Assembly: GCA_023657465.1 (NCBI GenBank)
Contig: JAGTJX010000004.1
Coordinates: 18,053 to 50,052, forward strand
Reading direction: 5' to 3'
Source of the DNA: Lysobacteraceae bacterium
GTDB taxonomy: Bacteria; Bdellovibrionota; UBA1018; JAGTJX01
DNA length: 32,000 nt
The notes beneath the pieces were generated by a model. That model ran no database searches. It was not told where the DNA came from and saw nothing but the letters and a program-made list of their open reading frames with translations. The position numbers were made by a program, and so were the translations under genes. This document shows positions 11,461 through 32,000 of the stretch, one piece after another (the first letter of the stretch is position 1; each line of letters starts with the position of its first letter).

Positions 11461-12375
11461 ATGATGTTAAGGATGAAGATTAAAGCAGCAATCACACGCT
11501 TCCTGGCTCATTTGACTGATGGAATTCAGGCATCTCCCCATACGGTCAGGGCTTATGAGGGAGATCTCATGAAGGGGTTACTTCCATGGGCAGAGAAGCA
11601 GGGGTGGTCGACGCTCTCACAGATTGAGAGTGGTCTATCTAAAGTCGAGCTGAGAACTTATATTTCGGAGCTCCTGGTTGATCACGAGAAGACTTCAGTG
11701 GTGAGAAGGCTTTCTTGTTTCAGAGCGTTCTTCCAATATCTCTATTCTCAGGGTCTCATCGATACGGATCTAGCAGTCAAAATTCCACTTCCTAAGATCT
11801 CAAAGCCACTTCCAGTGTTTCTCAAGATTGAAGAATTAGGAATGCTCATTGAATCTGTCCAGGGCGAGGATTTCTTCAAGCTTCGGGACCGAGCACTGAT
11901 CGAACTCATGTATGGTGCAGGGATCAGAGTCAGCGAAGTAGTGACTCTCAAGTGCTCAAATGTAGATCTCTCCCAAGGTTGGGTGAAGGTCATCGGTAAA
12001 GGCTCAAAAGAGCGAATGGTTCCCATTGGAAAAAAAACCGTGCAAGCACTTCAGGAGTACATGAAGTTTTTAAATGAGACTGCTCAAGCGCCAATTTTCG
12101 TAAATACGGGGAACAGACCACTCACGACTCGTGGGGTAAATGATATTCTTAAGCGTAGGCAATCTCAGGCAGGTCTAGAGAGACCGGTCTCTGCTCACGG
12201 GTTGCGTCACAGTTTTGCAACCCATCTCATGGCTGGTGGAGCGGATCTTAGGGTCATTCAAGAGATGTTGGGACACGTCACGCTGAGTACGACTCAGAAG
12301 TATACTCATTTGGATTTGGATCGGTTGTCTGAAGAAGTACTGATGCATCATCCTTTGAACAAAAAGGAAAAATAA
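11461..12375 (+). CDS. xerC: Tyrosine recombinase, XerC type
   Basis: Catalytic pattern: YGAGIRVSEVVTLK, KGSKERMVPI, HGLRHSFATHLMAGGADLRVIQEMLGHVTLSTTQKYTHLD. Confidence 0.9.
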   Translation: MMLRMKIKAAITRFLAHLTDGIQASPHTVRAYEGDLMKGLLPWAEKQGWSTLSQIESGLSKVELRTYISELLVDHEKTSVVRRLSCFRAFFQYLYSQGLIDTDLAVKIPLPKISKPLPVFLKIEELGMLIESVQGEDFFKLRDRALIELMYGAGIRVSEVVTLKCSNVDLSQGWVKVIGKGSKERMVPIGKKTVQALQEYMKFLNETAQAPIFVNTGNRPLTTRGVNDILKRRQSQAGLERPVSAHGLRHSFATHLMAGGADLRVIQEMLGHVTLSTTQKYTHLDLDRLSEEVLMHHPLNKKEK

Positions 12376-15845: not shown

Positions 15846-16355
15846 TTATGCAGCCTCCTTACGACGTGCAAGAGCTGTTTTCCACAGCTGGTATTGACTA
15901 ATGACGTATTTTTGATCTGTTTCTCTGAGACGAGCAATCATTGTGTCGATGCATGATTTGTAAAATCGCATTTTTCTAGAATCATCGCTCATGACATAGG
16001 CTTCAAACTTCTCTCTAGAAATCTGAAACACTTGGCAGTCCATGAGCGCTCTTACGGTTGCTGATCTTGGATTGTTATCGATGAGAGAGAGCTCACCAAA
16101 CACTGCGCCGGGCTGCAAGTGACCTAAGTCGTATTGATTGCTTCCCATCGGATTGGCCTTACTCACTCCGACTTGTCCATCAAGAAGTACGAACATACCA
16201 CCTTTGGTATCTCCTTCAATCATGATGTTGGTGTGAGCTTGTACGGCATAAGTTTCTCCAGTAGAAATTAACTCTTGGATCTCTTCATCAGTGAATCCAG
16301 AAAGGAGTTTCACTTCTTTGATCGTTTCTACAGTTGGAGCTTGTATCTCTGTCAT
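15846..16355 (-). CDS. Cyclic nucleotide-binding (CNB/CAP-sensor) domain protein without HTH
   Basis: HLQPGAVFGELSLIDNNPRSATVRALMDCQVFQISREKF phosphate-binding cassette. Confidence 0.88.
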   Translation of the reverse strand: MTEIQAPTVETIKEVKLLSGFTDEEIQELISTGETYAVQAHTNIMIEGDTKGGMFVLLDGQVGVSKANPMGSNQYDLGHLQPGAVFGELSLIDNNPRSATVRALMDCQVFQISREKFEAYVMSDDSRKMRFYKSCIDTMIARLRETDQKYVISQYQLWKTALARRKEAA

Positions 16356-19353: not shown

Positions 19354-20517
19354 TCAAAACATTGCGCTTACGCCAAGACCGATTTCGATACCCGAAACAC
19401 TTCCTGCGCTTGTTCCACTCAGGAACGCTGTAGCAGGTGGTCTGTAGCCTAAGCTCACTGGAACTGCCCAGTGCTTACCAAAACGCCATTCATAGCCAAT
19501 GCGACCAATTGCACCTAAGAATCCAGATGCATAAGTGCCGCCAGCTGCGATAAAAAGACTGTTTCTAGCCTTGTTATAGCTTTCAATTTCTCCCCAGAGA
19601 TTCCACGCATGAACGAAAAGGAGTGTGAGGTTGAAGCCAGAGTAGAGATTGACTGTACCTGCAGTAGGAGTCACACCCATTAGCGTGTTAACGTCCATCA
19701 TGTAGTTCATTTCAAAACCGACTTCCTTCTTGCGATTGTCGTAACGTTCTACCATTCTAAATGCGAATCCAAGAACGCTTGAATAAGTTCCTACGTTTGC
19801 TTGATAGAAGTAATAGAGAGTTGGGCGATACATCACAGTAGGCGCGAATTCGATTTGATCCGTTTTAGGATTGATCTGATTGAAATCAACTCCACGACGG
19901 AATGCAGTGGCACGGGAAGTTTCAGAGTTATAACTCTTAGACCATGCAACAGTGCCTGTTTCGGCGTCTACTATATAGAAAGAAATGAGCATTCCAGAGG
20001 GTTGATAAGAAAATGCAATGTCCATGAAGTTTTCAATTCCAGACATTTTTGCAATTCTCGCTAATTGTACAGAGTTTCCATCAGTATTACTGATCACAAC
20101 ATTATCACCAAAAATATTTGCACTTTTTGCCTTACAAGGAAGACATTGAATCATTCTGGTTTTTGAGTTTCTGACAATTTTTTCACTGGTGACTAATTCT
20201 AAGTGCTGTCTGAATGACGGCGGTACGTTCTCACTGACTCCGATGTTTCGGATAGTGAGATTCTTCAGTCCTGAGACTTGTCCGTTTTTTACGTCGTACT
20301 CGAAGTCTGCAATCGTCTCTTCTAAGACTTGGTAGAAACTTCTAAATTTTTTGTCTTTATCTTTTTCCAAACCTAGCTTCGAACCAGTGGTTTCTGGAGC
20401 AGTGTCTTTTTGTAAACTCACGTTAGGCTCCGTCTCGTCAGATTTTGGTGCTACCTGTGCGTAGAGATATCCTGAAGTGATTAAGGCGATAAGCAAAATC
20501 AATAGATGCGAGCGCAC
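19354..20517 (-). CDS. Exported protein: N-terminal CsgG/FlgO-like domain (tentative) plus C-terminal beta-barrel-like region
   Basis: Signal peptide; IAFSYQPSGMLISFYIVDAETGTVAWSKSYNSETSRA; C-terminal half of alternating aromatic/hydrophobic strands ending ...SAMF (terminal Phe). Confidence 0.6.
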   Translation of the reverse strand: MRSHLLILLIALITSGYLYAQVAPKSDETEPNVSLQKDTAPETTGSKLGLEKDKDKKFRSFYQVLEETIADFEYDVKNGQVSGLKNLTIRNIGVSENVPPSFRQHLELVTSEKIVRNSKTRMIQCLPCKAKSANIFGDNVVISNTDGNSVQLARIAKMSGIENFMDIAFSYQPSGMLISFYIVDAETGTVAWSKSYNSETSRATAFRRGVDFNQINPKTDQIEFAPTVMYRPTLYYFYQANVGTYSSVLGFAFRMVERYDNRKKEVGFEMNYMMDVNTLMGVTPTAGTVNLYSGFNLTLLFVHAWNLWGEIESYNKARNSLFIAAGGTYASGFLGAIGRIGYEWRFGKHWAVPVSLGYRPPATAFLSGTSAGSVSGIEIGLGVSAMF

Positions 20518-20844
20518 AAAGATTGTGCTCCTTCCTCAGATATCTCTTCGGACACAGGAGCTTGTGCTTAAGGACAAAGTAATTAATCTTGGGATTTAGT
20601 TAGTATTAGGTTGAAAATCGACATTTTTTTGTCAGTTCAGTGTGATTTACGTTTCTATTAAAAGTTAGAAGGAACAAGCGATGATCTGTATTCCTTAATA
20701 GAAAACGGCCTCAAAAATTGGAACGTTATTTAATAGAGATAGAAGGAGCCTGAATTTCTAGGCTCATTTTGAGAGTAGTGACTATATTTTACTCAAATAC
20801 ACATAATGGCAAAATCTACATCCCGGAAATAAGTAAATTCTAAG

Positions 20845-21042
20845 GTGAATTGTTTGAAAGATACGATTGTTAAGATGTTTCGTTCTTCATTCAAAAAGGT
20901 CGATAAAAAGTATATGGGAGTTCATTTGGTCATTCGCAATTTTCTTTATTGGATAACAGGTAATTCAGATAAACGTTTTTATGATATCTTTAATACAAAC
21001 AAGATAAAATTCAAATCTATAGATTCTGAAGAAAGCTTATGA
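20845..21042 (+). CDS. Small hypothetical protein
   Basis: 65 aa ORF with ATGA overlap to the next ORF; no homology recognised. Confidence 0.35.
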   Translation: MNCLKDTIVKMFRSSFKKVDKKYMGVHLVIRNFLYWITGNSDKRFYDIFNTNKIKFKSIDSEESL

Positions 21043-21281
21043 TTTTTATAAGCCAACAAAAATTCACTACATTAACCAATGCAATGCTCCTTGTATTTTG
21101 TATTAGTTTTACTGGGATATTCGTACCCATAATTTCTTATTTCATGCAAAAAAAATGGTTTCCCTCAAAATACTCAAATTTGAATGCAGGTCTTCGAACA
21201 GAAGCAATACTAGTAGAATCCACAAGTAATAAGCGAGCAGTTGCAAGCCAGGTGAAACAACCTAAAAAAGTCCGGCGTTAA
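21039..21281 (+). CDS. Small membrane protein, possibly frameshifted near its 3' end
   Basis: One TM-like segment (AMLLVFCISFTGIFVPIISYFM). A coding-like continuation lies in the -1 frame to 21463. Confidence 0.4.
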   Translation: MIFISQQKFTTLTNAMLLVFCISFTGIFVPIISYFMQKKWFPSKYSNLNAGLRTEAILVESTSNKRAVASQVKQPKKVRR

Positions 21282-21467
21282 GTCGGCCGATAATCAATAA
21301 GAATATTGCTACATCTCCAGCTAAGGAAGATTCCAAAGCTGAAAACCTTGCCGAAGCAGAAGCTCAAATAGCAGAAATCAAAACCGATCCTGAGTTTGAG
21401 CAGCTGTTTGGAGGCAATAGTGATTGGTTTTACAGAAGCTTTAGTTTTTGGAAAAATACTTGATGCA

Positions 21468-21511
21468 TTATTTGCAATTAATATTTGTTGGGTTATTTGC
21501 AATTAATATTT
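21468..21511 (+). repeat. Tandem pair of a 19-bp direct repeat
   Basis: TTATTTGCAATTAATATTT at 21468-21486 and 21493-21511. Confidence 0.9.
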
Positions 21512-21559
21512 TTATCAAAATGAAATTCTGTAACTAGATTTTGTTCTTTTGATGCTACC

Positions 21560-21703
21560 TCAGCTAACCAACTCATCGTCTGGCACGCTTTGAAGAAGTG
21601 TCTCAATGGCATCCGCCTTTTCCTGGGTCACAAGAAAAAGCTTTCTCTTAGTTTCACTTTTAATCGCAACCTCAATAAGGCGCGTTTTCACGACTACCGA
21701 CAT
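21560..21703 (-). pseudogene. Truncated N-terminal part of an antitoxin-like protein
   Basis: Translated by hand: MSVVVKTRLIEVAIKSETKRKLFLVTQEKADAIETLLQSVPDDELVS*, resembling the N-terminus of HTH antitoxins, with no HTH before the stop. Confidence 0.45.
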
Positions 21704-21948
21704 AAGTTACCTCCACTATTTTAACTTCGTTATTCACTACTTCCCAAACAGCAACATAGCTATAATTCAAATGGCAGTGATGAGTTCCATCAGTAAGTTT
21801 TGGATAGTTAGGTCAATTCACAGCGAACTGGACCGTTTGCCATGATATTGGCGATCAGGATCTGAAGTAATTCCCGAACATTTTTGGGCAGTTTACTTGG
21901 ACCTTTTACAGCCTTTTTCTTGGTTTTAACTGTCCAGGTCAACTTTAT
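21672..21948 (-). pseudogene. Frameshifted RelE/HigB-like toxin remnant
   Basis: LTWTVKTKKKAVKGPSKLPKNVRELLQILIANIMANGPVR in one frame, then NYPKLTDGTHHCHLNYSYVAVWEVVNNEVKIVEVTYVGSRENAPY* in another. One frame change plus a TGA lie at the junction. Confidence 0.7.
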
Positions 21949-21961
21949 TTCTAGTAAAAAA

Positions 21962-22141
21962 CTAAGCTCTCTTTTTACCAGGAGGGGAAGCCAATATTTT
22001 TTTAGCTTCCTCTAAATCCACCAGCTGATCAGTAACGTAGCGATGAATCACTGAGCCCACTAAGGTTTGGTAGGGAAGTCCATGCTTGAGCGCTAGCTTC
22101 TGTAACTTGAGCAAGTCCTCTTCTGGCAAACGAATGTTCAT
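21962..22141 (-). CDS. CopG-like antitoxin (59 aa, below the ORF-track cutoff)
   Basis: Hand translation: MNIRLPEEDLLKLQKLALKHGLPYQTLVGSVIHRYVTDQLVDLEEAKKILASPPGKKRA*. The same frame reads ...SSKSERMNIRLPEED upstream. Confidence 0.65.
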   Translation of the reverse strand: MNIRLPEEDLLKLQKLALKHGLPYQTLVGSVIHRYVTDQLVDLEEAKKILASPPGKKRA

Positions 22142-22254
22142 ACGTTCAGATTTTGAGCTCTTAGAAGACCGAACTATTAGATTTGCTCGTTAAATCGAAG
22201 AGTTTTGATCCGAGCATTGCTTGGAAAACATTGGATGAATGAGAGCCGTACATA

Positions 22255-22323
22255 TTTCGCTAAAAGCGAAGGATAGGCCATTCTCATTTAGTGAAACTGA
22301 CTCTTATTTCGTTTTTAGCGAAA
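22255..22323. promoter_or_regulatory. Spaced inverted repeat upstream of the 22343 gene
   Basis: TTTCGCTAAAAgCGAA (22255-22270) and TTTCGTTTTTAGCGAAA (22307-22323). Confidence 0.5.
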
Positions 22324-22342
22324 CATAGTGAAAAGGAAGTGT

Positions 22343-23044
22343 ATGAATAGAAATTTTTTATTGGTTTTAATGAGCATCACAGCATCTGCCTTCGCTCAAG
22401 AGCCATTCAATGCTTTATCTAGTTATAATAACGAGACTCATCCCATTTTACTTACAATTGAATTGCAAGAGACTAAGTCTTGGAAAGAAACAAACTCAAC
22501 AACTATAGCAAATATTTATGCTGATGAATCTGAGGAAGAGGTGGCACATAAATTACTTTTTCATAAGAAACATAATTTAATTGAAAATAAACTTTCTAAG
22601 TATCCTGTTTATGAAAGTATTAAGTCCATAATGGTGAATGCTAGAGAAGAAATTTATAGAACAATGCCTCAATCAATCACGAGAAAGACAATTTCAGAAC
22701 ATGGAACTGAATACCCAGTAATTATTGCTGATTTCAACCTTTTAGAAAATAAAGTGAGACTTTATTTATCAAGCAGCTCTAACTACAACGTAGAATTTGA
22801 TAGAATGTTACAAATTAGAAGAGATCGAATGAATGTTCTTGCTGGAACTAACTTCAGAATGGCACCTCCCACTCCAGGCGTTCCTCCGATTGAAAAAATT
22901 AATTTAAACGAAACACTAACTACTGAAGATAAAACTAAAATCACTAAACAATTAATAGATGCTATTCATTCTGCTTTTTCAATTACTATCAATACTTTTG
23001 AGTTTAATGAAAAATTGAGAACTACCATTGATTTGTTTAGTTAA
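22343..23044 (+). CDS. Small exported hypothetical protein
   Basis: MNRNFLLVLMSITASAFAQ signal peptide; RBS-like aaaaggaagt upstream of 22343. Confidence 0.65.
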   Translation: MNRNFLLVLMSITASAFAQEPFNALSSYNNETHPILLTIELQETKSWKETNSTTIANIYADESEEEVAHKLLFHKKHNLIENKLSKYPVYESIKSIMVNAREEIYRTMPQSITRKTISEHGTEYPVIIADFNLLENKVRLYLSSSSNYNVEFDRMLQIRRDRMNVLAGTNFRMAPPTPGVPPIEKINLNETLTTEDKTKITKQLIDAIHSAFSITINTFEFNEKLRTTIDLFS

Positions 23045-23266
23045 AAAATACTTAACCCTGATCACTAGCTCGCTTGATGCGTACTAAAGTAAAAGATTAA
23101 AATCACAAAAACGGGCCAAACAGAGCAGAGTGAGCGGGAAACAACGAAGTTGTTTCGTGCGATGCTCCAAATCTTGAGAGCTCCAGGTTTAAGCTGTACC
23201 CCTTCTAACCAAGAAGCACTGCAGCTACAGAACCCCTTCTGAAATAGCATTGACAGATGAACATTA

Positions 23267-23295
23267 GATTGTTACACAGCGATTAGATTTTAAAT
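23267..23295 (+). repeat. 29-bp promoter-like direct repeat, copy 1
   Basis: GATTGTTACACAGCGATTAGATTTTAAAT, exact match to 23642-23670. Confidence 0.9.
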
Positions 23296-23325
23296 ATTAA
23301 ACAGATAACTGAAGGGGAAAACTCA

Positions 23326-23616
23326 ATGAAAAATATATTTTTTGGAATGCTCGCTCTCGCTAGTTCAACTCAAGCGTTCGCCGCTTGGCCTGAAACACAG
23401 TTGTTTTGTAAAAACGGAAAACTCTACGGAATCATCTATAACAATGATCCATTTATTGTTACGGAGTTTACCAATCAGAAAGAGTGTTCAAACAGCTTCG
23501 TGAATAGAAAATATTGCAAGGAAGCCAACATGCACGTCGTCTATGTCAAAGATGATCAAGCAGTAGAACACTATGCTACTCAAGACGAATGTCGCGAGGC
23601 TATTGGTAAAAATTAA
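23326..23616 (+). CDS. Small exported cysteine-containing protein
   Basis: MKNIFFGMLALASSTQAFA signal peptide, RBS aagggg; 96 aa with 5 Cys in the mature part. Confidence 0.7.
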   Translation: MKNIFFGMLALASSTQAFAAWPETQLFCKNGKLYGIIYNNDPFIVTEFTNQKECSNSFVNRKYCKEANMHVVYVKDDQAVEHYATQDECREAIGKN

Positions 23617-23641
23617 CCTATAGAGATATAAAAGAACGTAG

Positions 23642-23670
23642 GATTGTTACACAGCGATTAGATTTTAAAT
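23642..23670 (+). repeat. 29-bp promoter-like direct repeat, copy 2
   Basis: Exact copy of 23267-23295, again just upstream of an exported small protein gene. Confidence 0.9.
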
Positions 23671-23693
23671 TATTGGTTTTAGGAGTACTGAAT

Positions 23694-24098
23694 ATGAAAA
23701 ATATCCTGTCGATAATTTTATTTTTATCAAGCCTGAGTGCTTTTGCCTATGAGTACCCTGCTGCAAAAAGAGATCGTCCAATTATCGAAAAAGCCTTGAA
23801 TATGTACGACATTTCATTTGATGAACTCAAGTTCCCTTTAAAACGTCAGATTTTTACAGGAACCATGACTGCTTTAACTAAAATTCCAGAACTTGTTTCA
23901 TTTTTGACTGGTCTAGGCGATCAGCATTTCGTCACTCTCCATGTTATTGAAGGAAAGTTTAATCATGAGCAAAAGACATGCATCGCATATGTGCAGTTGA
24001 ACTTTGATAATACTCAAGAAGTTGAAATTGCAAATTGTGGCACTCATTACACTGACTTTTTCAGTTCCAAAAGATTAGTTCCACTCACTAGACCCTGA
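23694..24098 (+). CDS. Small exported hypothetical protein
   Basis: MKNILSIILFLSSLSAFA signal peptide; start at internal Met preceded by ttaggag. Confidence 0.65.
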   Translation: MKNILSIILFLSSLSAFAYEYPAAKRDRPIIEKALNMYDISFDELKFPLKRQIFTGTMTALTKIPELVSFLTGLGDQHFVTLHVIEGKFNHEQKTCIAYVQLNFDNTQEVEIANCGTHYTDFFSSKRLVPLTRP

Positions 24099-24100
24099 TT

Positions 24101-24187
24101 ACATGAGCGCTGTTTGCTCATTAATTTAAAGAACTTAACGTGCACCCGAAGGCCTAATTGACATTCGGGCGTTTCCATTTCTATGAA
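24101..24187 (+). repeat. Dispersed 3' module copy 1 (tandem hairpins, terminator-like)
   Basis: TGAGCGctgtttGCTCA then CCCGAAggcctaattgacaTTCGGGCGTTTCCATTTCTATGAAA; shared with 27357, 28799 and 29297. Confidence 0.75.
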
Positions 24188-24191
24188 ATAA

Positions 24192-24644
24192 CGCTCCCCA
24201 CTCTCCGCCCCAGTTGATGCATCTGACTGGTATATCAGTGATCGATTATCAGAAAAGCTAAAGAGTTATCCAATGGCGGATTTAGTTCCCTATCGAAACT
24301 ATTATCTAAAGCATATTTGGAATCGAGCAAAGTTCTATAACGGTCTCTCGAAGAAAGTGTTGGGAAGAGAAGTAAAGCATACGCTACTGATTCATCACAA
24401 TCTACTTAACGCTCTTTTCTTAGATGATTTATTGGCTATGTTTAAGAAGAATGGGTGGAAAATCATCTCTGCTGAAAGTGCATTTTCTGATCCTATCTTT
24501 AAAACTGAAGCAAAAATAGCCCCAGCTGGAGAAAGCATTTTATGGGCACTTGCTAAGGAAACGGGTAAATTTGAATCAATATTACGTTATCCGGCAGAGG
24601 ATAGTGACTATGAAAAACCAGAAATGGATCGACTCGGACTTTAA
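24192..24644 (+). pseudogene. C-terminal fragment of a polysaccharide (NodB-family-like) deacetylase
   Basis: VDASDWYISDRLSEKL...HTLLIHHNLLNALFLDDLLAMFKKNGWKIISAESAFSD...RYPAEDSDYEKPEMDRLGL resembles the C-terminal end only; catalytic N-terminus absent. Confidence 0.55.
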
Positions 24645-24704
24645 GAAATTCGACTAAATTTGCGGAACCTTCCTATAGCATGGGTCTCTATTTCAAGTGT
24701 CCTC

Positions 24705-25007
24705 TCAAGCAACTTTCAGCCTGTAATCAGGATTGATCTTTGAATAAAGCCTGATGAGCTTATCAGTGCTAAATCGGGTAATCCGATGATTGAATATCCT
24801 GCTCATATCAGCCTTGGTAATGCCTAAAAATTTTGCCATCGCAACGGCACTTAATTCATGTTGCTGAGAGTACTTAAGAAGGTCCTGGCAAATCTGGAAT
24901 CGAAATCTAGCTAGCTCATCGGCGTCAGGCGATAGCATGAGAAAGCCAGGTTTCTTGCTAAGTTTTGCTCTGATTTTTGATAATTCCTTTTTACTTGGAA
25001 AACCCAT
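24705..25007 (-). CDS. XRE/HigA-like HTH antitoxin
   Basis: LSAVAMAKFLGITKADMSRIFNHRITRFSTDKLIRLYSKINPD; located 3 bp downstream of the toxin-like ORF. Confidence 0.72.
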   Translation of the reverse strand: MGFPSKKELSKIRAKLSKKPGFLMLSPDADELARFRFQICQDLLKYSQQHELSAVAMAKFLGITKADMSRIFNHRITRFSTDKLIRLYSKINPDYRLKVA

Positions 25008-25010
25008 TCC

Positions 25011-25300
25011 TTACTTCCTCCTATATGCGTTGACGACTCCAATATAAAGCTCATCACCTTCTAATAACCAAACTAACTTGTAGTTTTTTCCTTCAAGTCT
25101 CAGTTGGTCGGTAACAAAATACTCATAAGGTTCGTCGCTGTCTTGAACGGGATAAGTACCTCCGTCTAGTAATTTTACAAGCTTTACGACCAACTCATCA
25201 TTAATTACATTTTTATGTTAAACCTCATAGTGAGCGTCAATAACGACCTTATGGATCGGTCGAGAGTTTACGGTAATATTGATTGCGTATTCACGGCGAT
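25011..25300 (-). pseudogene. RelE/HigB-like toxin remnant with in-frame TAA
   Basis: Hand translation upstream of the track ORF: RREYAINITVNSRPIHKVVIDAHYEV*HKNVINDELVVKLVKLLDGGTYPVQDSDEPYEYFVTDQLRLEGKNYKLVWLLEGDELYIGVVNAYRRK. Same frame, one internal stop, no Met start. Upstream boundary approximate. Confidence 0.6.
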
Positions 25301-25442
25301 CCAAACATCCTAAAGTAGCATAATGTTGTCATATTTGACAACATCTATTTCTAGTTGGCTTTACGTGGTTTACCGGAAATAACTTCGTCACTTCAACTAG
25401 CCCGCTTAATGGATAGAATGTCCATTTAATCCGGTAAATAGC

Positions 25443-25772
25443 TCATGAGACTGGAGTGATCTCTGCGATGGCACGACCATGCTTTAGTAATCGCACAGTA
25501 TTTCCTCTCAGTACTTGATCGAGGATCTCTCCTGTTTTGTTCTTCAATTCAGTTGCCGAATAGCTCAGTATATTCTTTTTTAATTCAGCAATGACCCAGG
25601 ATTCGAGTTTAAGTAGCGACTGTACGGGTAGGGCGCTCTCAGACATGAGTCCGTCGTTTAAAATAAAATGCATCGCGACTGAAAACTCAATCCCAGGAAA
25701 ATAACCCTCGGAAATTTTCATTTTTAGATTTTCAATCAGATCAGGATTTAATATCTGCGACAATGTATTCAT
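25443..25772 (-). CDS. Phd/YefM-like antitoxin with N-terminal extension
   Basis: C-terminal YSATELKNKTGEILDQVLRGNTVRLLKHGRAIAEI. ATG at 25772 is preceded by AAGGAGTGAAC; the 25916 start overlaps fic. Confidence 0.72.
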   Translation of the reverse strand: MNTLSQILNPDLIENLKMKISEGYFPGIEFSVAMHFILNDGLMSESALPVQSLLKLESWVIAELKKNILSYSATELKNKTGEILDQVLRGNTVRLLKHGRAIAEITPVS

Positions 25773-25783
25773 AAGTTCACTCC

Positions 25784-26413
25784 TTATTCTTTTGAAATGC
25801 GTTTTTTGAAAAACCGCTCTAATTGTGAGAGGTCGCCCGAGTTGGCAGCTTCTAGTGCTCTCAGATGCTCGACTTTGTCCTTCAGTTTGAAAGTGAACAA
25901 GCTTTTGAATTTCCAATGCAGCCAGTACGCCATCAAAACCCTGCCTATTCGCCCATTGCCGTCTTGGAAAGGATGAATGCTCTGAAAAGAATAATAAAGC
26001 TCTGCTATTTGATTTCGGTCATGAGGATCACGATTGTAAAGCTTGATCCATTCCTGCATTGCAGTCTGAACTTTTGATGGACTGACATAATCAAACCTGC
26101 TCCCGTCTGAGCGAAAGGTATAGTTTTCGATCGATTTCCATTTGCCATGATCTCCAGAGAATCCAGTAAAGAGTTTCTGATGAAAACTCTGAATCAAGTC
26201 TATCGAAACATAAGGGCTTTTTTGTAATTCATGAATCAGCCATTCGACTGCAGATCTATAGTTGAGGAGTTCTCTGGCTTCAGAGATGGGGTGACCAAGT
26301 ACAGTCCTGCCAGCCAAGATCTCGCGAGACTCCTGTTCGGTCAATGTTGAGCCTTCGACGAGAGTGGACCCGATCAATAAGGCATCTTCAAGATCTTCAA
26401 GCTTCCACTTCAT
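25784..26413 (-). CDS. fic: Fic-domain protein (putative AMP transferase or toxin)
   Basis: Fic motif IHPFQDGNGRIGRVL; N-terminal inhibitory-type motif STLVEG ((S/T)xxxE(G/N)). Start at 26413 (MKWKLED). Confidence 0.88.
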   Translation of the reverse strand: MKWKLEDLEDALLIGSTLVEGSTLTEQESREILAGRTVLGHPISEARELLNYRSAVEWLIHELQKSPYVSIDLIQSFHQKLFTGFSGDHGKWKSIENYTFRSDGSRFDYVSPSKVQTAMQEWIKLYNRDPHDRNQIAELYYSFQSIHPFQDGNGRIGRVLMAYWLHWKFKSLFTFKLKDKVEHLRALEAANSGDLSQLERFFKKRISKE

Positions 26414-26453
26414 ATTGACTATATTAGCTAAAAAAGCTAATATAGTCAATATG
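26411..26453. promoter_or_regulatory. Perfect 19-bp inverted repeat forming a symmetric divergent promoter/operator at the fic start codon
   Basis: CATATTGACTATATTAGCT-AAAAA-AGCTAATATAGTCAATATG; each strand reads TTGACT-17 bp-TAATAT-AGTCAAT-ATG. Confidence 0.85.
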
Positions 26454-26547
26454 GTGTGAATACTTCGTCAGAGTGCCTTTAATGGGATCAGAACACTTGC
26501 CTGTTTTTTTTACAATCGTAGGACTTACACCGACTGGTTTGCACCAT

Positions 26548-26740
26548 CCGCCAAATCAACTAAATCGCTTAATGAGAATAATGGCAAGTATTTCCAGTAA
26601 AAGTGGGTGAGCGAGAATGAGCGTTATTGAATAGAAGGCTTGTTACAATACCCTACGGCGCCGCGCTTGACTGAGTATGTTAGAGTCGCTATTTAACTTT
26701 TGTTTACTAAATGAAAGAAAATGGATTCAAAACACGAATC
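26548..26740 (+). repeat. Dispersed 5' module copy A, including promoter TTGACT-17-TATTTA (26667-26695)
   Basis: AACTAAATCGCTTAATGAGAATAATGGCAAGTATTTCCAGTAAAAG...GAGCGTTATTGAATAGAA; shared with 28201-28380, 28919-29150 and partly 31205-31255. Confidence 0.8.
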
Positions 26741-26797
26741 ATATCTACTGGTCTAAAACCCTTGAACTTTAGTCGAGAATGAAATACTAGACTCAGC

Positions 26798-27355
26798 ATG
26801 AAAATATTCATTTTTTGTTTTTTTATACCTACTTTTGCTCTTAATTCTTTTGCAGAAGATCGAATTAAATTTGAAAAAAAAGGTGAAACTTACGATTTTC
26901 AAGTGAGTGATATCAATGGTCCTAATGGATCAACGGCACAAGAGGCCTTCCTCTATTACATATTTGCAGGCGCAAAAAAAAATAACTCGGATCAGAACGA
27001 CTGGAATGCATTCTACCGTATTCCTGGTTATAGAAAACAAACTATCAGTAAACTGCTTAAAGTAAATCTAGTTGGCGATTTACCAAAATATATTTGGCAC
27101 TTTTCACTTCCAACAGATGACCTGATTTCACACAAAAGCACGGAGAATAGCGAAGAGATACAAATCAAAGGTGAAGTAGCTGAGGTACTCTATGACGGTA
27201 TTCAAAATATACTAGCATACAACGATAGTCTTAGCTCTTGTGATAAGGAAAAAAGAGTTTTTCTTGGTAAAAAAATTGCTTGCTCACCAACTAAAATTAG
27301 AATCCAAAGTGAAGAATACGATTCAGCTCAATGTAAACTCACTTTAGATAAATAG
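26798..27355 (+). CDS. Small exported hypothetical protein
   Basis: MKIFIFCFFIPTFALNSFAEDRIKF signal peptide; sits between 5' module A and 3' module copy 2. Confidence 0.68.
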   Translation: MKIFIFCFFIPTFALNSFAEDRIKFEKKGETYDFQVSDINGPNGSTAQEAFLYYIFAGAKKNNSDQNDWNAFYRIPGYRKQTISKLLKVNLVGDLPKYIWHFSLPTDDLISHKSTENSEEIQIKGEVAEVLYDGIQNILAYNDSLSSCDKEKRVFLGKKIACSPTKIRIQSEEYDSAQCKLTLDK

Positions 27356-27356
27356 T

Positions 27357-27420
27357 TACCTGCTCAACAATTAGAAATGTCATGAGCGCCCGAAGATAAA
27401 TCACTTTCGGGCGTTTTCAT
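27357..27420 (+). repeat. Dispersed 3' module copy 2 (terminator-like)
   Basis: TGCTCAACAATTAGAAATGTCATGAGCGCCCGAAgataaatcacttTCGGGCGTTTTCATTT. Confidence 0.75.
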
Positions 27421-27439
27421 TTGAACTAAAATCAAATTA

Positions 27440-27808
27440 TTACGCAGCCCAATCCAAATCAATCCCTGAGAACTTGGCAAGTGGGATAAGTCCATTTCGA
27501 CTATTACCAGCTTCCTTCAAATCTATAAGACCAATATCGGCAAGGAGTTTGACATCGGTATGAACATTCTTGAAATCCCGTCCAAGTAGTTTCGCTAAAT
27601 CATAAATGGACTTGGGGCTTTGTTGAATGACCGCACGAAGAATCTCCATGCGAACTTTTGAAAAGACACGAGCTACCGCTTCTAGACTCGTAAAAATGAT
27701 TTCATCATCTTTTTGAATACCTTTTCTCTTACCCTCGATAGCCTCTGCCCATTCGCGTTTAGTGTTTTCTATTGTTTTAACAATAATTTTTGCATGTTTC
27801 TTTTTCAT
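27440..27808 (-). CDS. MarR/HTH-like antitoxin, TumA/HVO_A0114-like
   Basis: SKVRMEILRAVIQQSPKSIYDLAKLLGRDFKNVHTDVKLLADIGLIDL winged-helix pattern; ATGA overlap with the upstream toxin gene. Confidence 0.72.
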   Translation of the reverse strand: MKKKHAKIIVKTIENTKREWAEAIEGKRKGIQKDDEIIFTSLEAVARVFSKVRMEILRAVIQQSPKSIYDLAKLLGRDFKNVHTDVKLLADIGLIDLKEAGNSRNGLIPLAKFSGIDLDWAA

Positions 27809-28125
27809 ACTAAGAATCCCTCCATTCGAACCAAACTCCAAAAATCTTCAACTAACTGACTTACATCTTTAAATTCATACGCTTCTTCTCGCCCATTCCG
27901 GTGCAAATGGGGCCCCTTTGGCTTGTGGTTATCAAATCCAACGATCACTTCGCCTGACTCCCTCCAAACCAAGAAGAGAGAGAACTTTCGACCCTCTGGA
28001 TAATGAGGGCTTTCTGGAACATCAAATATTTTCAGCTCAGCAATGGCAACTTCTTCGCTAGCTCTATGAATGACTTGAACTTTAGAATGAAAAAGCAACG
28101 TCGCTGCTCGACGGGGAGAAGCCAT
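27805..28125 (-). CDS. TumE-like (DUF6516) toxin
   Basis: SGEVIVGFDNHKPKGPHLHRNGREEAYEFKDVSQLVEDFWSLV; partner arrangement with a HVO_A0114-like HTH. Confidence 0.7.
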   Translation of the reverse strand: MASPRRAATLLFHSKVQVIHRASEEVAIAELKIFDVPESPHYPEGRKFSLFLVWRESGEVIVGFDNHKPKGPHLHRNGREEAYEFKDVSQLVEDFWSLVRMEGFLV

Positions 28126-28200
28126 ATATGTTTATATTACCATATATAGAGCTTTGGTCAAGGATTTCTACGAAAGAACATTCCAAATTCTACGCCCCAA

Positions 28201-28380
28201 CCTCTACTAAGTAATTTCCATTTAATCCGGTAGGCTTGTTTTCTAGAATCGCGAAATCAACTAAAACGCTTAATGAAAATATTGGCAAGTATGAACCCGC
28301 CTCACTTGACTTAGTCTACTAATGTTGATATTTAACTCGTGTTTACAAAATCATAGAAAATCTATTCAGAACCTGAATCA
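28201..28380 (+). repeat. Dispersed 5' module copy B with promoter TTGACT-17-TATTTA (28306-28334)
   Basis: CCTCTACTAAGTAATTTCCATTTAATCCGGTAG...TTAATGAAAATATTGGCAAGTAT...CTTGACTTAGTCTACTAATGTTGATATTTAACTCGTGTTTACAAAATCA. Confidence 0.82.
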
Positions 28381-28418
28381 AAACTATTTAGTCAAATGAC
28401 GTGAAGGATAGTGATGTT

Positions 28419-28796
28419 ATGAAAAAAATTATATTATGTGTGTTGTTGTTGATTTCGAATGCTGCATTTGCTCAAATAGAATTTGTCGAAACATATACCA
28501 TCGTTAGCCAGAAACCAGATGACATCTTCAGTACCATTATTAATCTTACTGATAATACAGGAAAAGTATTTTGTATAACTTGTCAGAATCCATTTGATGC
28601 AAGCTTTAAACGATCTGTCGCGTTTTGGGCTTATGGAAATGGTAGCGATAAATGGATTGCAACAACAAGTGAAACATTTAATTCAGACACTTGTCAAAAA
28701 CAAATATACTCATTGCTCGAACGTTTAGATGGCACGAATTCAATTGAGATTACTGTGAAAAATAAAATCTTAGTGAAGATGGATCTTAAGCACTGA
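28419..28796 (+). CDS. Small exported hypothetical protein
   Basis: MKKIILCVLLLISNAAFAQ signal peptide; start at internal Met. Confidence 0.7.
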   Translation: MKKIILCVLLLISNAAFAQIEFVETYTIVSQKPDDIFSTIINLTDNTGKVFCITCQNPFDASFKRSVAFWAYGNGSDKWIATTSETFNSDTCQKQIYSLLERLDGTNSIEITVKNKILVKMDLKH

Positions 28797-28798
28797 CT

Positions 28799-28880
28799 TC
28801 ATGAGCATCACATGCTCATCCTAGTAAAAGATTCTCGAACGCCCGAAGGTAAATCGCTTTCGGGCGTTTTCATTTCTATG
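28799..28880 (+). repeat. Dispersed 3' module copy 3 (two hairpins)
   Basis: ATGAGCAT-cac-ATGCTCAT then CGCCCGAAggtaaatcgctTTCGGGCG. Confidence 0.82.
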
Positions 28881-28909
28881 AAAGAATTTTCGAAATCCTG
28901 CGCTCGAAC

Positions 28910-29150
28910 CTCTACTCAGTAATTTCCATTTAATCCGGTAGACTCGATTCCAAAAACCGCCAGATCAACTAAAGAGCTAAATGGGAATATTGGCAAGTAT
29001 TTCCGGTAAAAGAAGGGTGCTAAGAGTGAGCGTTATTGAATAGAATTTCAGCCATATTGCCATACGGATCCTACCTTGACTTAGCCTATTAGAGTCGCTA
29101 TTTAACTCTTGTTTACAAAATCAAAGAAACTCGATTCAGACCATGAATCT
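28910..29150 (+). repeat. Dispersed 5' module copy C (fullest copy), promoter TTGACT-17-TATTTA (29075-29103)
   Basis: CTCTACTCAGTAATTTCCATTTAATCCGGTAGACTCGATTCC...AATATTGGCAAGTATTTCCGGTAAAAG...TTGACTTAGCCTATTAGAGTCGCTATTTAACTCTTGTTTACAAAATCA. Confidence 0.82.
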
Positions 29151-29296
29151 AAATCATGGGTCTAAAGACAAAACTGCTGCTTCCATTTCAAAGGTCGTTA
29201 TTTTGATGAAAAGACAAAATCCATACTATTTTATAATAGCTGGAGTTGGCTCGAGTGATCCCGAAATAACTGTTTCGTGCATATTGTTCTGATCAC

Positions 29297-29380
29297 ACGA
29301 GCATCACCTGCTCATTAAAACAAAGGAATTATGAACGCCTAAAAAACTAAATTTCTTTCAGGCGTTTCCATTTCTATGAT
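29297..29380 (+). repeat. Dispersed 3' module copy 4
   Basis: CACGAGCATCACCTGCTCATTAAA...GAACGCCTaaaaaactaaatttctttcAGGCGTTTCCATTTCTATGA. Confidence 0.75.
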
Positions 29381-29454
29381 TGAACGTTCCCAATTCCATC
29401 CCTACTTCTACCGGAAGTATTGTCCATTTAATCGAGCAGTAAGGAAGAGAAACT

Positions 29455-29940
29455 ATGAAAATTTTAAGTCTTGGCATCTTAATAATAGGGTCAAATGCAT
29501 TTGCTTTAGATTTTGATGACTATAAACATTGGTACAATAACGGAAATAAAACAAAATTTACTAAAAATGCTCCTGATGAAACCGACCGTCTAAGTCGCTC
29601 AACTCCTCAATGCACCTTCGCTGTGCATTCTCCACCACGCTCAGAAAATGCTTCCGCAATTGCTATTGAGCCAACGAAAAATGGAGATATACTTGTTTTT
29701 GGATCTGTAACAACCATTGGAGACTCTAGAGCTCGTAAGATGCTTGCTAAATTAACTTCAAATTCTGAGTCGGACTCAGACTTGATTTTGGGTATTCGAA
29801 AAAACAATCTAGATGTTTATGAAGATGCTGCAGCTCCTGTAAGAATACTAATTCGTTCTGGTTATCGCGATCTCTACTTCAAAATCGAAACAGTTTCTGT
29901 GAGTGAAAAATTAAAGAATTTGCATACGGAAGATGTTTGA
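29455..29940 (+). CDS. Small exported hypothetical protein
   Basis: MKILSLGILIIGSNAFALD signal peptide; RBS-like ggaagag. Confidence 0.65.
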   Translation: MKILSLGILIIGSNAFALDFDDYKHWYNNGNKTKFTKNAPDETDRLSRSTPQCTFAVHSPPRSENASAIAIEPTKNGDILVFGSVTTIGDSRARKMLAKLTSNSESDSDLILGIRKNNLDVYEDAAAPVRILIRSGYRDLYFKIETVSVSEKLKNLHTEDV

Positions 29941-30014
29941 ACGCTTATAGAAAATATTAGTCCCTAAATTTGTAGCCTTTTGATGCTCTAAAAAGCAAAG
30001 GACTAAAATTCAAC

Positions 30015-30051
30015 AAAACCCTTGTTGGCATGATCTGCTAGCAGGGGTTTT
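30015..30051. terminator. Bidirectional terminator candidate between convergent genes
   Basis: AAAACCCTTG...CAGGGGTTTT hairpin. Confidence 0.6.
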
Positions 30052-30057
30052 ATGTTT

Positions 30058-30366
30058 TTACGAAGCCTGTTTCTTTTCGCTTTCAATGGATATTTTGAGA
30101 CCGACTGCTTTGAGTAGTGATCTTAGAGTCGAGAGTTTTGGGTTTCCATCTTTTGAAAGCGTCTTATAGAGACTCTCTCTACCTAATGAAGCGTGTTCTG
30201 CAATCTCTGAAACTCCGTGAGCTACAGCTACGTCTCGTAGAGCTAAAAGAAACACATCTTCACTATCATCTTCATCTAGATGAGCATTGAGATATGCAGC
30301 TGCTTCCTTTGGATCGTGCAGTGATTGAATGAGTCCATCTTCATATTTTTTCGTTCGTTTTGGCAT
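30058..30366 (-). CDS. HigA-like addiction-module antidote protein
   Basis: MPKRTKKYEDGLIQSLHDPKEAAAYLNAHLDEDDSEDVFLLALRDVAVAHGVSEIAEHASLGRESLYKTLSKDGNPKLSTLRSLLKAVGLKI. Confidence 0.85.
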   Translation of the reverse strand: MPKRTKKYEDGLIQSLHDPKEAAAYLNAHLDEDDSEDVFLLALRDVAVAHGVSEIAEHASLGRESLYKTLSKDGNPKLSTLRSLLKAVGLKISIESEKKQAS

Positions 30367-30380
30367 CTTTGTCTCCTTTG

Positions 30381-30713
30381 CTACACAGACTGATAATCTT
30401 TCCAATACTCTTTGGCCTTTTGAATATCGCGCTCCTGAGAGCCTTTATCTCCACCGACGAGGAGAACCACGATTTTTGCTCCATCCTCACCAAAATACAC
30501 TCGGTAGCCTGGGCCAAAATCAATTTTGAGTTCCCACACACCCTGGCTGAGATTTCTTGTATTACCCAGGTTTCCGGTACGCACACGGTTCAGGCGTTTC
30601 CGCACAATTGCTCGTGCTGAAATATCCTTCAGGCCATTCAACCAATCTTCAAATGGACACCGTCCATCTTCAGTGACGTAGTTTAGTAGCTCACGAGGAG
30701 TTGGTTCCTTATC
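30381..30713 (-). CDS. RelE/HigB-like (phage Gp49-like) toxin; start codon unclear
   Basis: Frame reads DKEPTPRELLNYVTEDGRCPFEDWLNGLKDISARAIVRKRLNRVRTGNLGNTRNLSQGVWELKIDFGPGYRVYFGEDGAKIVVLLVGGDKGSQERDIQKAKEYWKDY. The track begins at an internal TTG (30641). Confidence 0.75.
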   Translation of the reverse strand, partial: DKEPTPRELLNYVTEDGRCPFEDWLNGLKDISARAIVRKRLNRVRTGNLGNTRNLSQGVWELKIDFGPGYRVYFGEDGAKIVVLLVGGDKGSQERDIQKAKEYWKDYQSV

Positions 30714-30766
30714 TCAGCCTTTATTGTATCCTAAAAGATACATATATTGCAAGGTGTATTTTAGAC

Positions 30767-30937
30767 TCATTTATGGCGCCTCTCACCTAAAAGCTGCCTA
30801 TTCCACTTACCTAGGCTCATGATGTGCTGTTTTGAAGCGCCGTGCATGAGCTGCTCTGTGACATCGATAATCGTGCCGCTCCAACCCAATCCCAAGCCAA
30901 GCCAAATGAGTCGGTTGATCAAAGTTGAAATGTTCAT
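30767..30937 (-). CDS. Small hypothetical protein, 56 aa (below ORF-track cutoff)
   Basis: Hand translation: MNISTLINRLIWLGLGLGWSGTIIDVTEQLMHGASKQHIMSLGKWNRQLLGERRHK*, SD AAAGGA upstream. Confidence 0.45.
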   Translation of the reverse strand: MNISTLINRLIWLGLGLGWSGTIIDVTEQLMHGASKQHIMSLGKWNRQLLGERRHK

Positions 30938-31352
30938 AGGTTAGTCCTTTCGTTGATACTATATTTTGAATAGTGATAGAAATCCCCCAAGACACGCCAC
31001 CTGGCCTTAGGGGATTGATTAGATTTTAATTTTCAATGAACCTACCAGTAAGAGTTTATCCGCTCTTGCAAATCGTCGATCCCAGAGCGCATATATGTAC
31101 TCTCGAACAACAACCAGTGGTTCGTTCAAAATAGCTCGTCGCCCACCATTCAAGTAAAAAAGCGAACTCGCGTCAGGAATGTTGGCCTTACCATTAGAAA
31201 GAAGGGCAATTATTTCCGGTAAAAGAGGGTGCCTTAGTACGAGCGTTATTGAATAGAAATTTCAAGAATTATGAAGGGAAGCGTACAAGAAAAAGGCCGT
31301 TGAATTTCTAAGCTCTCAACCATCGTGAGGCTGTACCATGGGCTCAATAACA

Positions 31353-32000
31353 TTAACTCAATTTGTCTGACTCACTACGTTCTATCATTTGGTCAACTGC
31401 AGCTTCTAACACTTTTATTCGCTCTAAATTTCCTTCTGCCTCAGCACTAGAAAACATTTTAAAATTGGCGTTGGGTGCGAGCGCTGAATGGGTTCCAGCC
31501 AAATATTCATTGATAAAAATTTTCAATGCAGGTTGAGAGTTTTTATCATTGACCCCGAGCCAATTGAGGCGACGCTCAACAAAGAGGGTAGTAAAGCCAT
31601 TCACCATGGCCCAGCAGTGCATCGATTTGTGATAAGGGTCTCCTGGACCCACAATCCCCTCTTTTTGTAATAGTTCGATCACTTTTTTGAGTAATGCGAA
31701 AGTCAATCCTGCTGCTTTTTCGAGCTCAGGATATTCCGGACTTGGACAAACCGTAGAGCTCAACATGAGCTTGAAATGTTGAGGATGAGAAAGTCCCATT
31801 TTAAAGTAAGATTGAGCACATCCATGTAGCAGTTCTTTAGGTTTTTTTCTGTTTTTGATAAATGCCTCTAGCATGTATTTCATTTTTATTTCAAAGCCTT
31901 GCTGGCTAATCGCCGCGAGTAACTCATTGCGATTCTTGAAGTGACGATAAGGAGCTGCTTGGCTGACTCCTGCTCGAATAGCAAGTGTGTTGAGGGAGAG
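31353..32000 (-). CDS. TetR-family regulator, N-terminus outside window
   Basis: The frame continues upstream of the listed Met: LSLNTLAIRAGVSQAAPYRHFKNRNELLAAISQQGFEIKMKYM, the HTH end typical of TetR. Confidence 0.85.
   Translation of the reverse strand, partial: LSLNTLAIRAGVSQAAPYRHFKNRNELLAAISQQGFEIKMKYMLEAFIKNRKKPKELLHGCAQSYFKMGLSHPQHFKLMLSSTVCPSPEYPELEKAAGLTFALLKKVIELLQKEGIVGPGDPYHKSMHCWAMVNGFTTLFVERRLNWLGVNDKNSQPALKIFINEYLAGTHSALAPNANFKMFSSAEAEGNLERIKVLEAAVDQMIERSESDKLS

Follow-up and report, generated by a model that had tools for sequence, protein, structure and literature searches.

A locally reiterated intergenic repeat flanks unrelated genes for small exported proteins in an accessory island of a Bdellovibrionota genome

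The window analyzed here is a stretch of 32,000 nucleotides (nt) from contig JAGTJX010000004.1 (positions 18,053 to 50,052) of the metagenome-assembled genome (MAG) GCA_023657465.1, assigned to the Bdellovibrionota; all coordinates refer to the window unless stated otherwise. Its right part carries an array of open reading frames (ORFs) for small exported proteins, between which one contiguous composite repeat of ~370 bp recurs. All repeat copies lie on the plus strand and within 24.1–31.3 kb, and none was found in the first 20 kb of the window (the core). We tentatively regard the repeat as an intergenic expression module, multiplied locally, which marks a hotspot of gene gain and loss; the architecture of the array is like that of integrons or of rAID-1, the recombinase-associated acquired interbacterial defence arrays. 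A previous sequence-only reading had proposed interchangeable promoter and terminator modules at this locus. The two modules turned out to be the ends of one repeat, which is centered on an element bearing terminal inverted repeats (TIRs).

The composite repeat comprises three parts. Part a is a hairpin that abuts the stop codon and is followed by an intrinsic terminator; part E is a ~175-bp element with TIRs of 18–20 bp and two CCGGTA-containing cores; and part d is a −35/−10 promoter-like site followed by a leader of 75–100 nt with a small palindrome. All three parts are joined in a single place:

28793–29169, plus strand: the sole complete composite repeat (a, 28793–28871; E, 28872–29047; d, 29070–29169)

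The conserved 5′ block stops 19–41 nt ahead of the ATG, and the conserved 3′ block begins at the stop codon in three of the four copies. Hexamers and stems are invariant and spacers and loops are variable, a pattern of conservation that fits expression signals. Comparison with known RNA families gave no match at the gathering score, and noise alone was returned at E ≤ 1.

The 3′ module (hairpin and terminator) is present in four copies, at 24095–24203, 27358–27422, 28793–28886, and 29289–29396, with pairwise identities of 69–79%. For its core, TTCRGGCGTTTYCATTT, 0.02 occurrences would be expected, yet four were counted, none of them on the minus strand or outside the array. The GC-rich terminator stem and the T-run are preserved in every copy, including one compensatory change of C-G to U-A, and the module folds with z = −5.6 relative to shuffled sequences. 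The four copies are those named by the sequence-only reading, which described each as a double hairpin next to a stop codon. This description holds for three of them, where the first hairpin is intact and the TGA stop codon lies inside a conserved block (CTGAYnnCAYGAGC); the copy at 27358 lacks the left arm of the first hairpin. The copies outside the complete repeat are as follows:

24095–24211, plus strand: 3′ module copy 1 with the best-preserved left arm of E (ATTTCTATGAAATAACGCTC...); E is truncated at ~24211
27358–27422, plus strand: 3′ module copy 2; terminator intact, first hairpin without its left arm
29289–29433, plus strand: 3′ module copy 4 with the left half of E; E is broken inside the core, directly after TCCATTTAATC

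Three copies of the 5′ module with the site TTGACT-17 bp-TATTTA had likewise been reported, and we recovered all of them (26661–26757, 28300–28400, and 29070–29169), with identities of 74–82%. A degenerate 47-nt pattern of the module matched three times, whereas 0.00 matches were expected. TTGACT and TATTTAAC are invariant and the 17-nt spacer between the hexamers varies, as would be expected of a promoter; a standard sigma-70 scan misses the site because its −10 hexamer lacks the canonical final T. The leader palindrome GATTCA-N5-TGAATC is kept in all three copies. A separate repeat ahead of the ORFs at 23326 and 23694, also noted previously, was found to extend over 37 nt with 92% identity between its two copies. 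The second of these ORFs (P3) has this other 5′ element in front of it but ends in the common 3′ module, in agreement with the sequence-only reading. The upstream elements outside the complete repeat are:

26661–26757, plus strand: 5′ module copy 1, TTGACT-17-TATTTA and leader
28300–28400, plus strand: 5′ module copy 2, identified by repeat comparison and by the degenerate pattern
23259–23295, plus strand: 37-nt upstream repeat copy 1, ahead of P2
23634–23670, plus strand: 37-nt upstream repeat copy 2, ahead of P3

The complete E element begins with ATTTCTATGAAAKAAC and finishes with GAGCGTTATTGAATAGAA, the two ends being mutually inverted repeats, and contains two related cores, TCCATTTAATCCGGTA and GGCAAGTATTTCCGGTA. 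Across copies, the best-preserved left arm, ATTTCTATGAAATAACGCTC (at 24177), and the right arm GAGCGTTATTGAATAGAAAT are complementary at 16–18 positions. The left arm at 24177–24196 is 89–90% complementary to the right arms at 26619–26636 and 31241–31260, and its predicted duplex energy with every right arm is −31 to −34 kcal/mol; the other left arms are degenerate, with energies of −16 to −25 kcal/mol. Five to six copies of E can be recognized, all on the plus strand, with right arms at 26619, 29028, and 31241 and a right-arm-like box at 20721. Three copies lie directly 3′ of an ORF and its terminator. All copies but one are partial, and at 24177–24211 the left arm stands alone. The partial copies not listed above, together with the halves of the broken ones, are:

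25367–25436, plus strand: left half of E, which stops at the core TCCATTTAATCCGGTA, the insertion point of the toxin-antitoxin (TA) locus TA2
26532–26638, plus strand: right half of E (partner of 25367–25436), which terminates in the right arm GAGCGTTATTGAATAGAA
28166–28292, plus strand: copy of E with left arm and center; right arm deleted
29370–29433, plus strand: left half of E, broken in the first core
31197–31260, plus strand: last fragment of E (second core and right arm), on the island's right edge
20646–20741, plus strand: short palindromic element on the island's left edge, terminating in the right-arm-like box GAACGTTATTTAATAGAG (20721–20738)

The box GAACGTTATTTAATAGAG is identical to the right-arm 18-mer at 15 of 18 positions. 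At the other end of the array, the stretch 29434–31196, which contains the ORF P14 and the locus TA4, lies between a left half that breaks off in the first core and a right part whose start precedes the second core. Breakpoints in E recur at or near the cores. The complete E (28860–29060) folds no better than shuffled sequences on either strand (z = +0.65 and +1.46). Its end boxes, AAATAAC and GTTATTG, match RYYYAAC/GTTRRRY at five and four of seven positions, and CGTTATT occurs 11 times in the window against 2.9 expected, with 10 of the 11 occurrences in the island. No target-site duplications were found around E, and no transposase gene was found in the island.

Unrelated ORFs on the plus strand, with no likeness beyond signal-peptide character, lie in and beside the slots between one part d and the next part a:

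22343–23044, plus strand: P1, exported orphan ORF of 233 amino acids (aa); signal peptide, positive codon score, no Pfam match, singleton cluster
23326–23616, plus strand: P2, exported orphan ORF of 96 aa; no Pfam match, singleton cluster, supported by codon score
23694–24098, plus strand: P3, exported orphan ORF of 134 aa; no Pfam match, singleton cluster, supported by codon score
24273–24644, plus strand: P4, ORF of 123 aa without a signal peptide; frame free of stops upstream as far as the left-arm edge
26798–27355, plus strand: P9, exported orphan ORF of 185 aa; matches itself only, supported by codon score
28419–28796, plus strand: P12, exported orphan ORF of 125 aa; no real homologue
29455–29940, plus strand: P14, exported orphan ORF of 161 aa, with its own, different terminator at 30015–30051
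29170–29288, plus strand: empty slot of 119 nt between the 5′ and 3′ modules; the 49-aa ORF 29143–29292 is not coding-like

The N-terminus of each of the six exported ORFs has a K/R and a hydrophobic stretch and finishes in xxFA; each of these ORFs, judged against the codon usage of the window core, scores as coding in frame 1 only, and the earlier prediction of six signal-peptide ORFs was borne out. The proposal that the enclosed ORFs are unrelated was also upheld, with no mutual similarity beyond the signal peptides. None of them belongs to a Pfam family, and all plus-strand ORFs form singleton clusters at 90% identity. P9 had no match but itself among 5.8 billion proteins, and a HMMER search with P12 among 1.84 billion cluster representatives returned only P12 itself and one junk translation of a tandem repeat. 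The single-sequence AlphaFold2 model of P12 had a pLDDT of 51, too low for fold comparison. P4, whose frame continues open ahead of its start until it meets the left arm, is probably a 3′ gene fragment. The sequence-only reading had counted the 49-aa ORF at 29143–29292 among the enclosed ORFs, but we do not retain it as a gene: its codon score is negative, its ATG lies within the conserved leader, and it is unannotated in the source record. As this ORF is not a gene, the unit is an empty slot. In the source MAG, the proteins of the array carry the locus tags KA715_12865 to KA715_12940 and the accessions MCM0606974–MCM0606989, and their contig measures 429,514 bp.

Five type II TA loci, all on the minus strand, were identified by Pfam matches:

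21962–22141, minus strand: CopG-like antitoxin gene, truncated to 59 aa; matched weakly by CopG_antitoxin of Pfam
24705–25193, minus strand: TA1, HTH_37/XRE antitoxin (24705–25007) and 60-aa partner (25011–25193)
25443–26413, minus strand: TA2, Phd-like antitoxin (25443–25772) and Fic/DOC toxin (25784–26413)
27423–28165, minus strand: segment with TA3, HVO_A0114 antitoxin (27440–27808) and TumE toxin (27805–28125) with promoter
30058–30641, minus strand: TA4, HI1420-type antidote (30058–30366) and Gp49/HigB-like toxin (30381–30641)

Two of these loci interrupt copies of the repeat exactly. TA3 is inserted between the end of part a (...TTTTCATTT) and the left arm of E (ATTTCTACG...), and TA2 is inserted right after the first core of E; the halves at 25367–25436 and 26532–26638 rejoin colinearly with the intact copies. 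Because TA2 and TA3 sit precisely inside repeat copies, with halves that rejoin around TA2, the repeats predate the TA insertions. Short direct repeats, read from the sequence, surround the inserted loci (ATTT at TA3 and AATC(CG)GTA at TA2).

The TA3 antitoxin belongs to a cluster of 12 members at ≥90% identity, and DNA homologous to TA3, with 80% nucleotide identity, was found in four different, unrelated contexts. In all four, the homology spans only the region from the promoter −35 to the stop codon (27439–28163), and neither an E-like site nor any other common flanking site was present. In L045 (groundwater MAG GCA_964364175.1), an inserted TumE/HVO_A0114 pair has a DUF3108 gene on one side and the lpx cluster on the other; it is flanked by direct repeats of ~40 nt, GACRTCTGAATGGATTTTAYAAACAAAATGAATTCTAAAA (L045 positions 9912–9960 and 10806–10855), which look like a duplicated insertion site. 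In L040 (positions 74–2323), the toxin gene of a TumE/HVO_A0114 copy is interrupted by an IS21-family element (IstA/IstB), and a large serine recombinase is encoded 3 kb from this copy.

Several further observations concern the other TA loci. A palindrome with 31-nt arms (84% complementary) at 26399–26465 overlaps divergent TTGACT-17-TAATAT promoter-like sites at the start of the Fic gene, and is probably the operator of TA2. Two palindromes of the TTCGCTAAAAGCGAA type at 22252–22326, between the CopG-like fragment and P1, are probably another antitoxin operator and could also affect the expression of P1. The CopG-like 59-aa ORF is a shortened version of a 103-aa protein that is encoded, at ≥90% identity, at two further places in this assembly: KA715_13565, which shares its contig, and KA715_06520, on a contig of 511 kb; these paralogues hint at further TA-bearing islands.

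The entire array is contained in a variable region of low GC content:

20581–31350, no strand: variable low-GC island holding the entire array, delimited by the end of synteny and by GC content

Nucleotide synteny with the nearest relatives, L009 and L010, extends over 10 kb at ~72–76% identity and ends at position 20580. To the right of this position, nucleotide comparison found no sequence of the window in either relative. The GC content is 0.35–0.40 in the island and 0.41–0.47 in the core. The array is a strain-specific accessory-gene island of ~11 kb that is absent from the nearest relatives.

The modules were searched for in the 20-kb core of the window, the species representatives of the Genome Taxonomy Database (GTDB), JGI metagenomes, IMG/VR viral contigs, and plasmids. 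None was found outside a 7-kb stretch of the window. The sequence-only reading had named a restriction of the modules to this locus as an outcome that would refute its proposal; in the sequences covered by these searches, they are restricted to it. The right-arm 18-mer gave eight single matches among the GTDB species representatives, none of them real: one lies inside a high-GC P450 gene of a Bdellovibrionales MAG, and the others were taken as chance. Three patterns searched in the IMG/VR viral contigs returned only chance matches or coincidences of 25–30 nt, a 39-nt pattern across the second core and the right arm had no match in the JGI metagenomes, and no module matched a plasmid.

A candidate relative of the element was found on the JGI contig L038, which carries a small array consisting of a CopG-type TA pair, an exported DKNYY protein, a TumE pair (80% nucleotide identity), and a YCII gene. 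These genes are separated by TIR elements of ~160 nt with the ends CGAAATAAC...GTTATTTCG, one of which folds as a long imperfect hairpin (z = −3.9) and another of which does not (z = −0.1). The best match of the 42-nt window left arm (24174–24215) in all of L038 falls exactly at an arm of one such element, with a score of 18 over ~38 aligned nt against 12.9 ± 1.3 in shuffled sequences (0 of 100 shuffles). Judged from this arm, it is possible, but not established, that the L038 elements are diverged relatives of E. The pattern of the L038-type element matched only L038 itself in the JGI metagenomes, apart from one chance match inside a gene, and L049, a close relative of the L038 organism, has no such array beside the shared LysR gene. 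Within the empty slot of the window (29193–29275), CGTTATTTTG is followed 60 nt later by CGAAATAAC; the two are the end boxes of the L038 elements in reversed order. They could be a cassette scar or a product of chance, GAAATAAC occurring four times against 1.4 expected.

The reading that we tentatively favor can be formulated as follows. One intergenic segment of ~370 bp, composed of terminator, E, and promoter-leader, would have been reiterated locally in a single orientation, and the slots between part d and the next part a would have come to carry unrelated orphan genes for small Sec-exported proteins, with one slot left empty. A slot starts at its own promoter-like site and stops at its own terminator, and may therefore act as an autonomous transcription unit. 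Selection on the expression signals would keep the repeat recognizable, and the repeat copies would supply homology or sites through which segments the size of a gene are acquired, lost, or replaced; the recombination involved may be homologous, illegitimate, or site-specific at the cores. The type II TA pairs would have been inserted later, on the opposite strand, into the repeat copies. Swapping of coding sequences, as envisaged by the sequence-only reading, is plausible: unrelated ORFs do lie in conserved flanks, but no swap event was observed.

Several observations weigh against this formulation. The array is one locus in one MAG, with no independent instance and no observed exchange event. 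The junctions differ, being located at the boundary of a and E, in the first core of E, in the second core, and, for P9, at a deeper 3′ position; a dedicated mechanism and occasional illegitimate recombination would explain such varied junctions equally well. P1–P3, in the left third of the island, do not use the 5′ module. At 80% identity, the edges of the TA3 homology may show how far selective constraint extends and not where a mobile unit ends. In addition, the similarity of E to the L038 elements is confined to the ~38-nt arm, and nhmmer profiles of the two were not significant in either direction (E ≥ 0.38).

The array shares features with several known systems. Sedentary chromosomal integron arrays, including CALINs (clusters of attC sites lacking an integrase), likewise consist of same-orientation repeats between short, mostly orphan genes, and they likewise show interleaved TA pairs, a low-GC strain-specific location, and complementary AAC/GTT-containing boxes at the repeat ends. 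The array contains at least two same-orientation sites less than 4 kb apart, each after a gene, which is the spacing used to delimit CALINs, counted here for repeats and not for proven attC sites. Known attC sites are 57–141 nt long and form imperfect hairpins with RYYYAAC and GTTRRRY boxes. The array repeat, in contrast, measures ~370 bp (E, ~175 nt) and lacks attC-type folding; its units have their own promoter, leader, and terminator, and its insertions lie within the repeat and not at the right-end G|TT. No IntI is encoded in the window. Its sole tyrosine recombinase (11461–12375) is XerC/D-like, scoring 276 bits on XerC and 122 bits on the integron-integrase model TIGR02249, for which the cutoff is 265, and the gene is syntenic in L009, which has no array. 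Three candidate assignments were rejected: E as an attC hairpin, after folding of both strands of the complete element and of the half elements; the terminator hairpin as a short attC, whose flanking boxes are not conserved among the four copies; and a Xer/dif-like site, the arms, as judged by eye, being unlike the 11-6-11 layout of dif.

Short TIR-bounded repeats of the Correia, ERIC, and RUP type, which belong to the miniature inverted-repeat transposable elements (MITEs), are non-coding and intergenic and provide promoter- or terminator-like signals for neighboring genes. Tens to hundreds of copies of such repeats are scattered in either orientation and are accompanied by target-site duplications, unlike the copies of E, which are clustered in one orientation and belong to a larger repeat. 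In mobile insertion cassettes, of which MIC231 of Bacillus cereus is an example, inverted repeats enclose a passenger gene but no transposase. In our array, unlike in MIC231, the sequence outside the inverted repeats of E is conserved as well, and no cognate insertion sequence is known for E.

The rAID-1 arrays of Bacteroidales contain many small genes separated by repetitive intergenic sequence "reminiscent of integrons" (bioRxiv 10.1101/471110). Their GC content is skewed, active gene acquisition is suspected, and many of their products are periplasmic; their defining features are a conserved XerD-family recombinase that heads the array and genes homologous to immunity genes (bioRxiv 10.1101/471110). 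Our array resembles them in its repetitive intergenic sequence, skewed GC content, and small genes. It differs in that no recombinase is encoded within or at the borders of 20.6–31.3 kb, the nearest Xer-like gene being 9 kb away in conserved core synteny, and that it belongs to another phylum. With respect to immunity genes, its ORFs gave no Pfam match, the searches with P9 and P12 returned no real homologue, and the model of P12 was too poor for folds to be compared.

Of the explanations that compete with a gain-and-loss hotspot, the most probable is tandem duplication alone, in which a single ancestral gene for an exported protein was copied together with its flanks, followed by divergence or decay and overprinting of the coding parts and random insertion of the TA pairs, without cassette exchange. 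Conservation breaks off just before the ribosome-binding sites and, in three of four copies, returns exactly at the stop codon, as conserved untranslated regions around a fast-evolving coding sequence would show, and the modules are confined to this locus in the sequences searched. The signal-peptide coding regions are also slightly more alike in the array than in core genes (0.43 vs. 0.39 identity), but this small effect is explicable by the common xxFA end and low GC content. Moreover, the flanks are 70–82% identical, yet the proteins are dissimilar beyond signal-peptide composition and the units differ in length (125 aa, 185 aa, and the 119-nt empty slot) and in cysteine pattern; neutral divergence of ~25% would still leave the proteins recognizable. 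We consider tandem duplication alone rather unlikely. A comparable, modest probability is given to a more far-reaching reading, namely an undescribed gene-capture platform of some Bdellovibrionota, similar to integrons in architecture, in which the units would be self-sufficient cassettes with their own promoter, leader, 3′ hairpin, and terminator, E with its CCGGTA cores, and not an attC hairpin, would be the site at which a recombinase inserts and excises gene-sized segments, the TA pairs would stabilize the array, and L038 would be a second, diverged instance.

It is less probable still that the array is a decayed integron array or CALIN, with E as a long attC, units mobilized by an IntI whose gene lies at another place in the genome, and TA pairs as stabilizing cassettes. 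Same-orientation repeats 0.5–2.4 kb apart, orphan single-gene units, interleaved TA pairs, and low GC content are consistent with such an origin, as are the complementary ...AATAAC and GTTATT... boxes at the ends of E, the right-arm-like box at the left edge of the island, the enrichment of CGTTATT, and the long imperfect hairpin of one L038 element. An IntI beside the array is not required for a CALIN; however, the only tyrosine recombinase of the window falls below the integron-integrase cutoff and is shared with an array-free relative, E does not fold as a hairpin and is longer than known attC sites, and its boxes match at only four to five of seven positions. The TA insertions, furthermore, fall centrally in E or at its left end, the homologues of TA3 have no E-like site, and the units possess their own promoters. 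Equally doubtful is that E is a MITE-like non-autonomous transposable element carrying outward or inward promoter and terminator signals like Correia-type repeats, or that TIR-bounded units are mobile insertion cassettes, which accumulated locally. The 18–20-bp TIRs, the size of ~175 bp, and the short direct repeats flanking TA2 and TA3 argue for this origin, and the empty unit from right arm to left arm (29028–29390) is a TIR-bounded segment of ~360 bp with an internal promoter and terminator. Against it, the island has no transposase and E has no flanking target-site duplications, the copies are clustered in one orientation with no dispersed copy in the 20-kb core or the collections searched, and a mobile unit is not definable because E and the inter-E sequence are both conserved. 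The least probable account is the original one in its full extent, that interchangeable promoter and terminator modules throughout the genome actively swap coding sequences to diversify secreted anti-prey factors. The conserved flanks around unrelated exported ORFs speak for it, as does P3, where another 5′ element is combined with the usual 3′ module. Yet the modules are ends of one repeat without copies outside the array in the collections searched, neither polymorphism nor exchange was observed, an action on prey found no support from Pfam, from the homologue searches with P9 and P12, or from the poor model of P12, and the predatory lifestyle of the source organism is inferred from its phylum only.

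Other features of the window lie outside the array units. A tandem 25-nt repeat, AATAYTTGWTGSRTTATTTGCAATT, is present in two copies and a partial third at 21455–21504, in non-coding island sequence. A TetR-family gene (31353–32000, minus strand) lies at the right edge of the island and extends past the window; the start listed for its ORF, 31883, is internal, and the N-terminal helix-turn-helix region is encoded by 31884–32000 and beyond. In the core, 16352–18616 (minus strand) encodes a 754-aa protein with C-terminal domains of the FliG_M/FliG_C type, as recognized by synteny with L009. Its architecture is unusual for a FliG-like protein, with a signal-peptide-like start and a long low-complexity linker, and its gene lies upstream of those for a cNMP-binding protein and MotA/MotB. 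The conserved gene at 19354–20517 has its best homologues in MAGs of the Bdellovibrionota, Bacteriovoracia, and Oligoflexia, the closest two being 85% and 76% identical. The NCBI label of the source MAG, "Xanthomonadaceae bacterium," is, on sequence grounds, probably wrong.

If the array is a mere scar of local duplication, it would be a clean case of TA pairs colonizing repeats in an accessory island, of limited general interest. The array bears on the assembly and turnover of orphan secreted-protein arrays outside the well-studied Proteobacteria and on the origin of integron-type cassettes, and unrelated genes that share a promoter-leader and a 3′ hairpin-terminator would represent a compact natural design of an "expression slot." If exchange at this locus is active, the array would constitute a new recombination platform in a predatory phylum.

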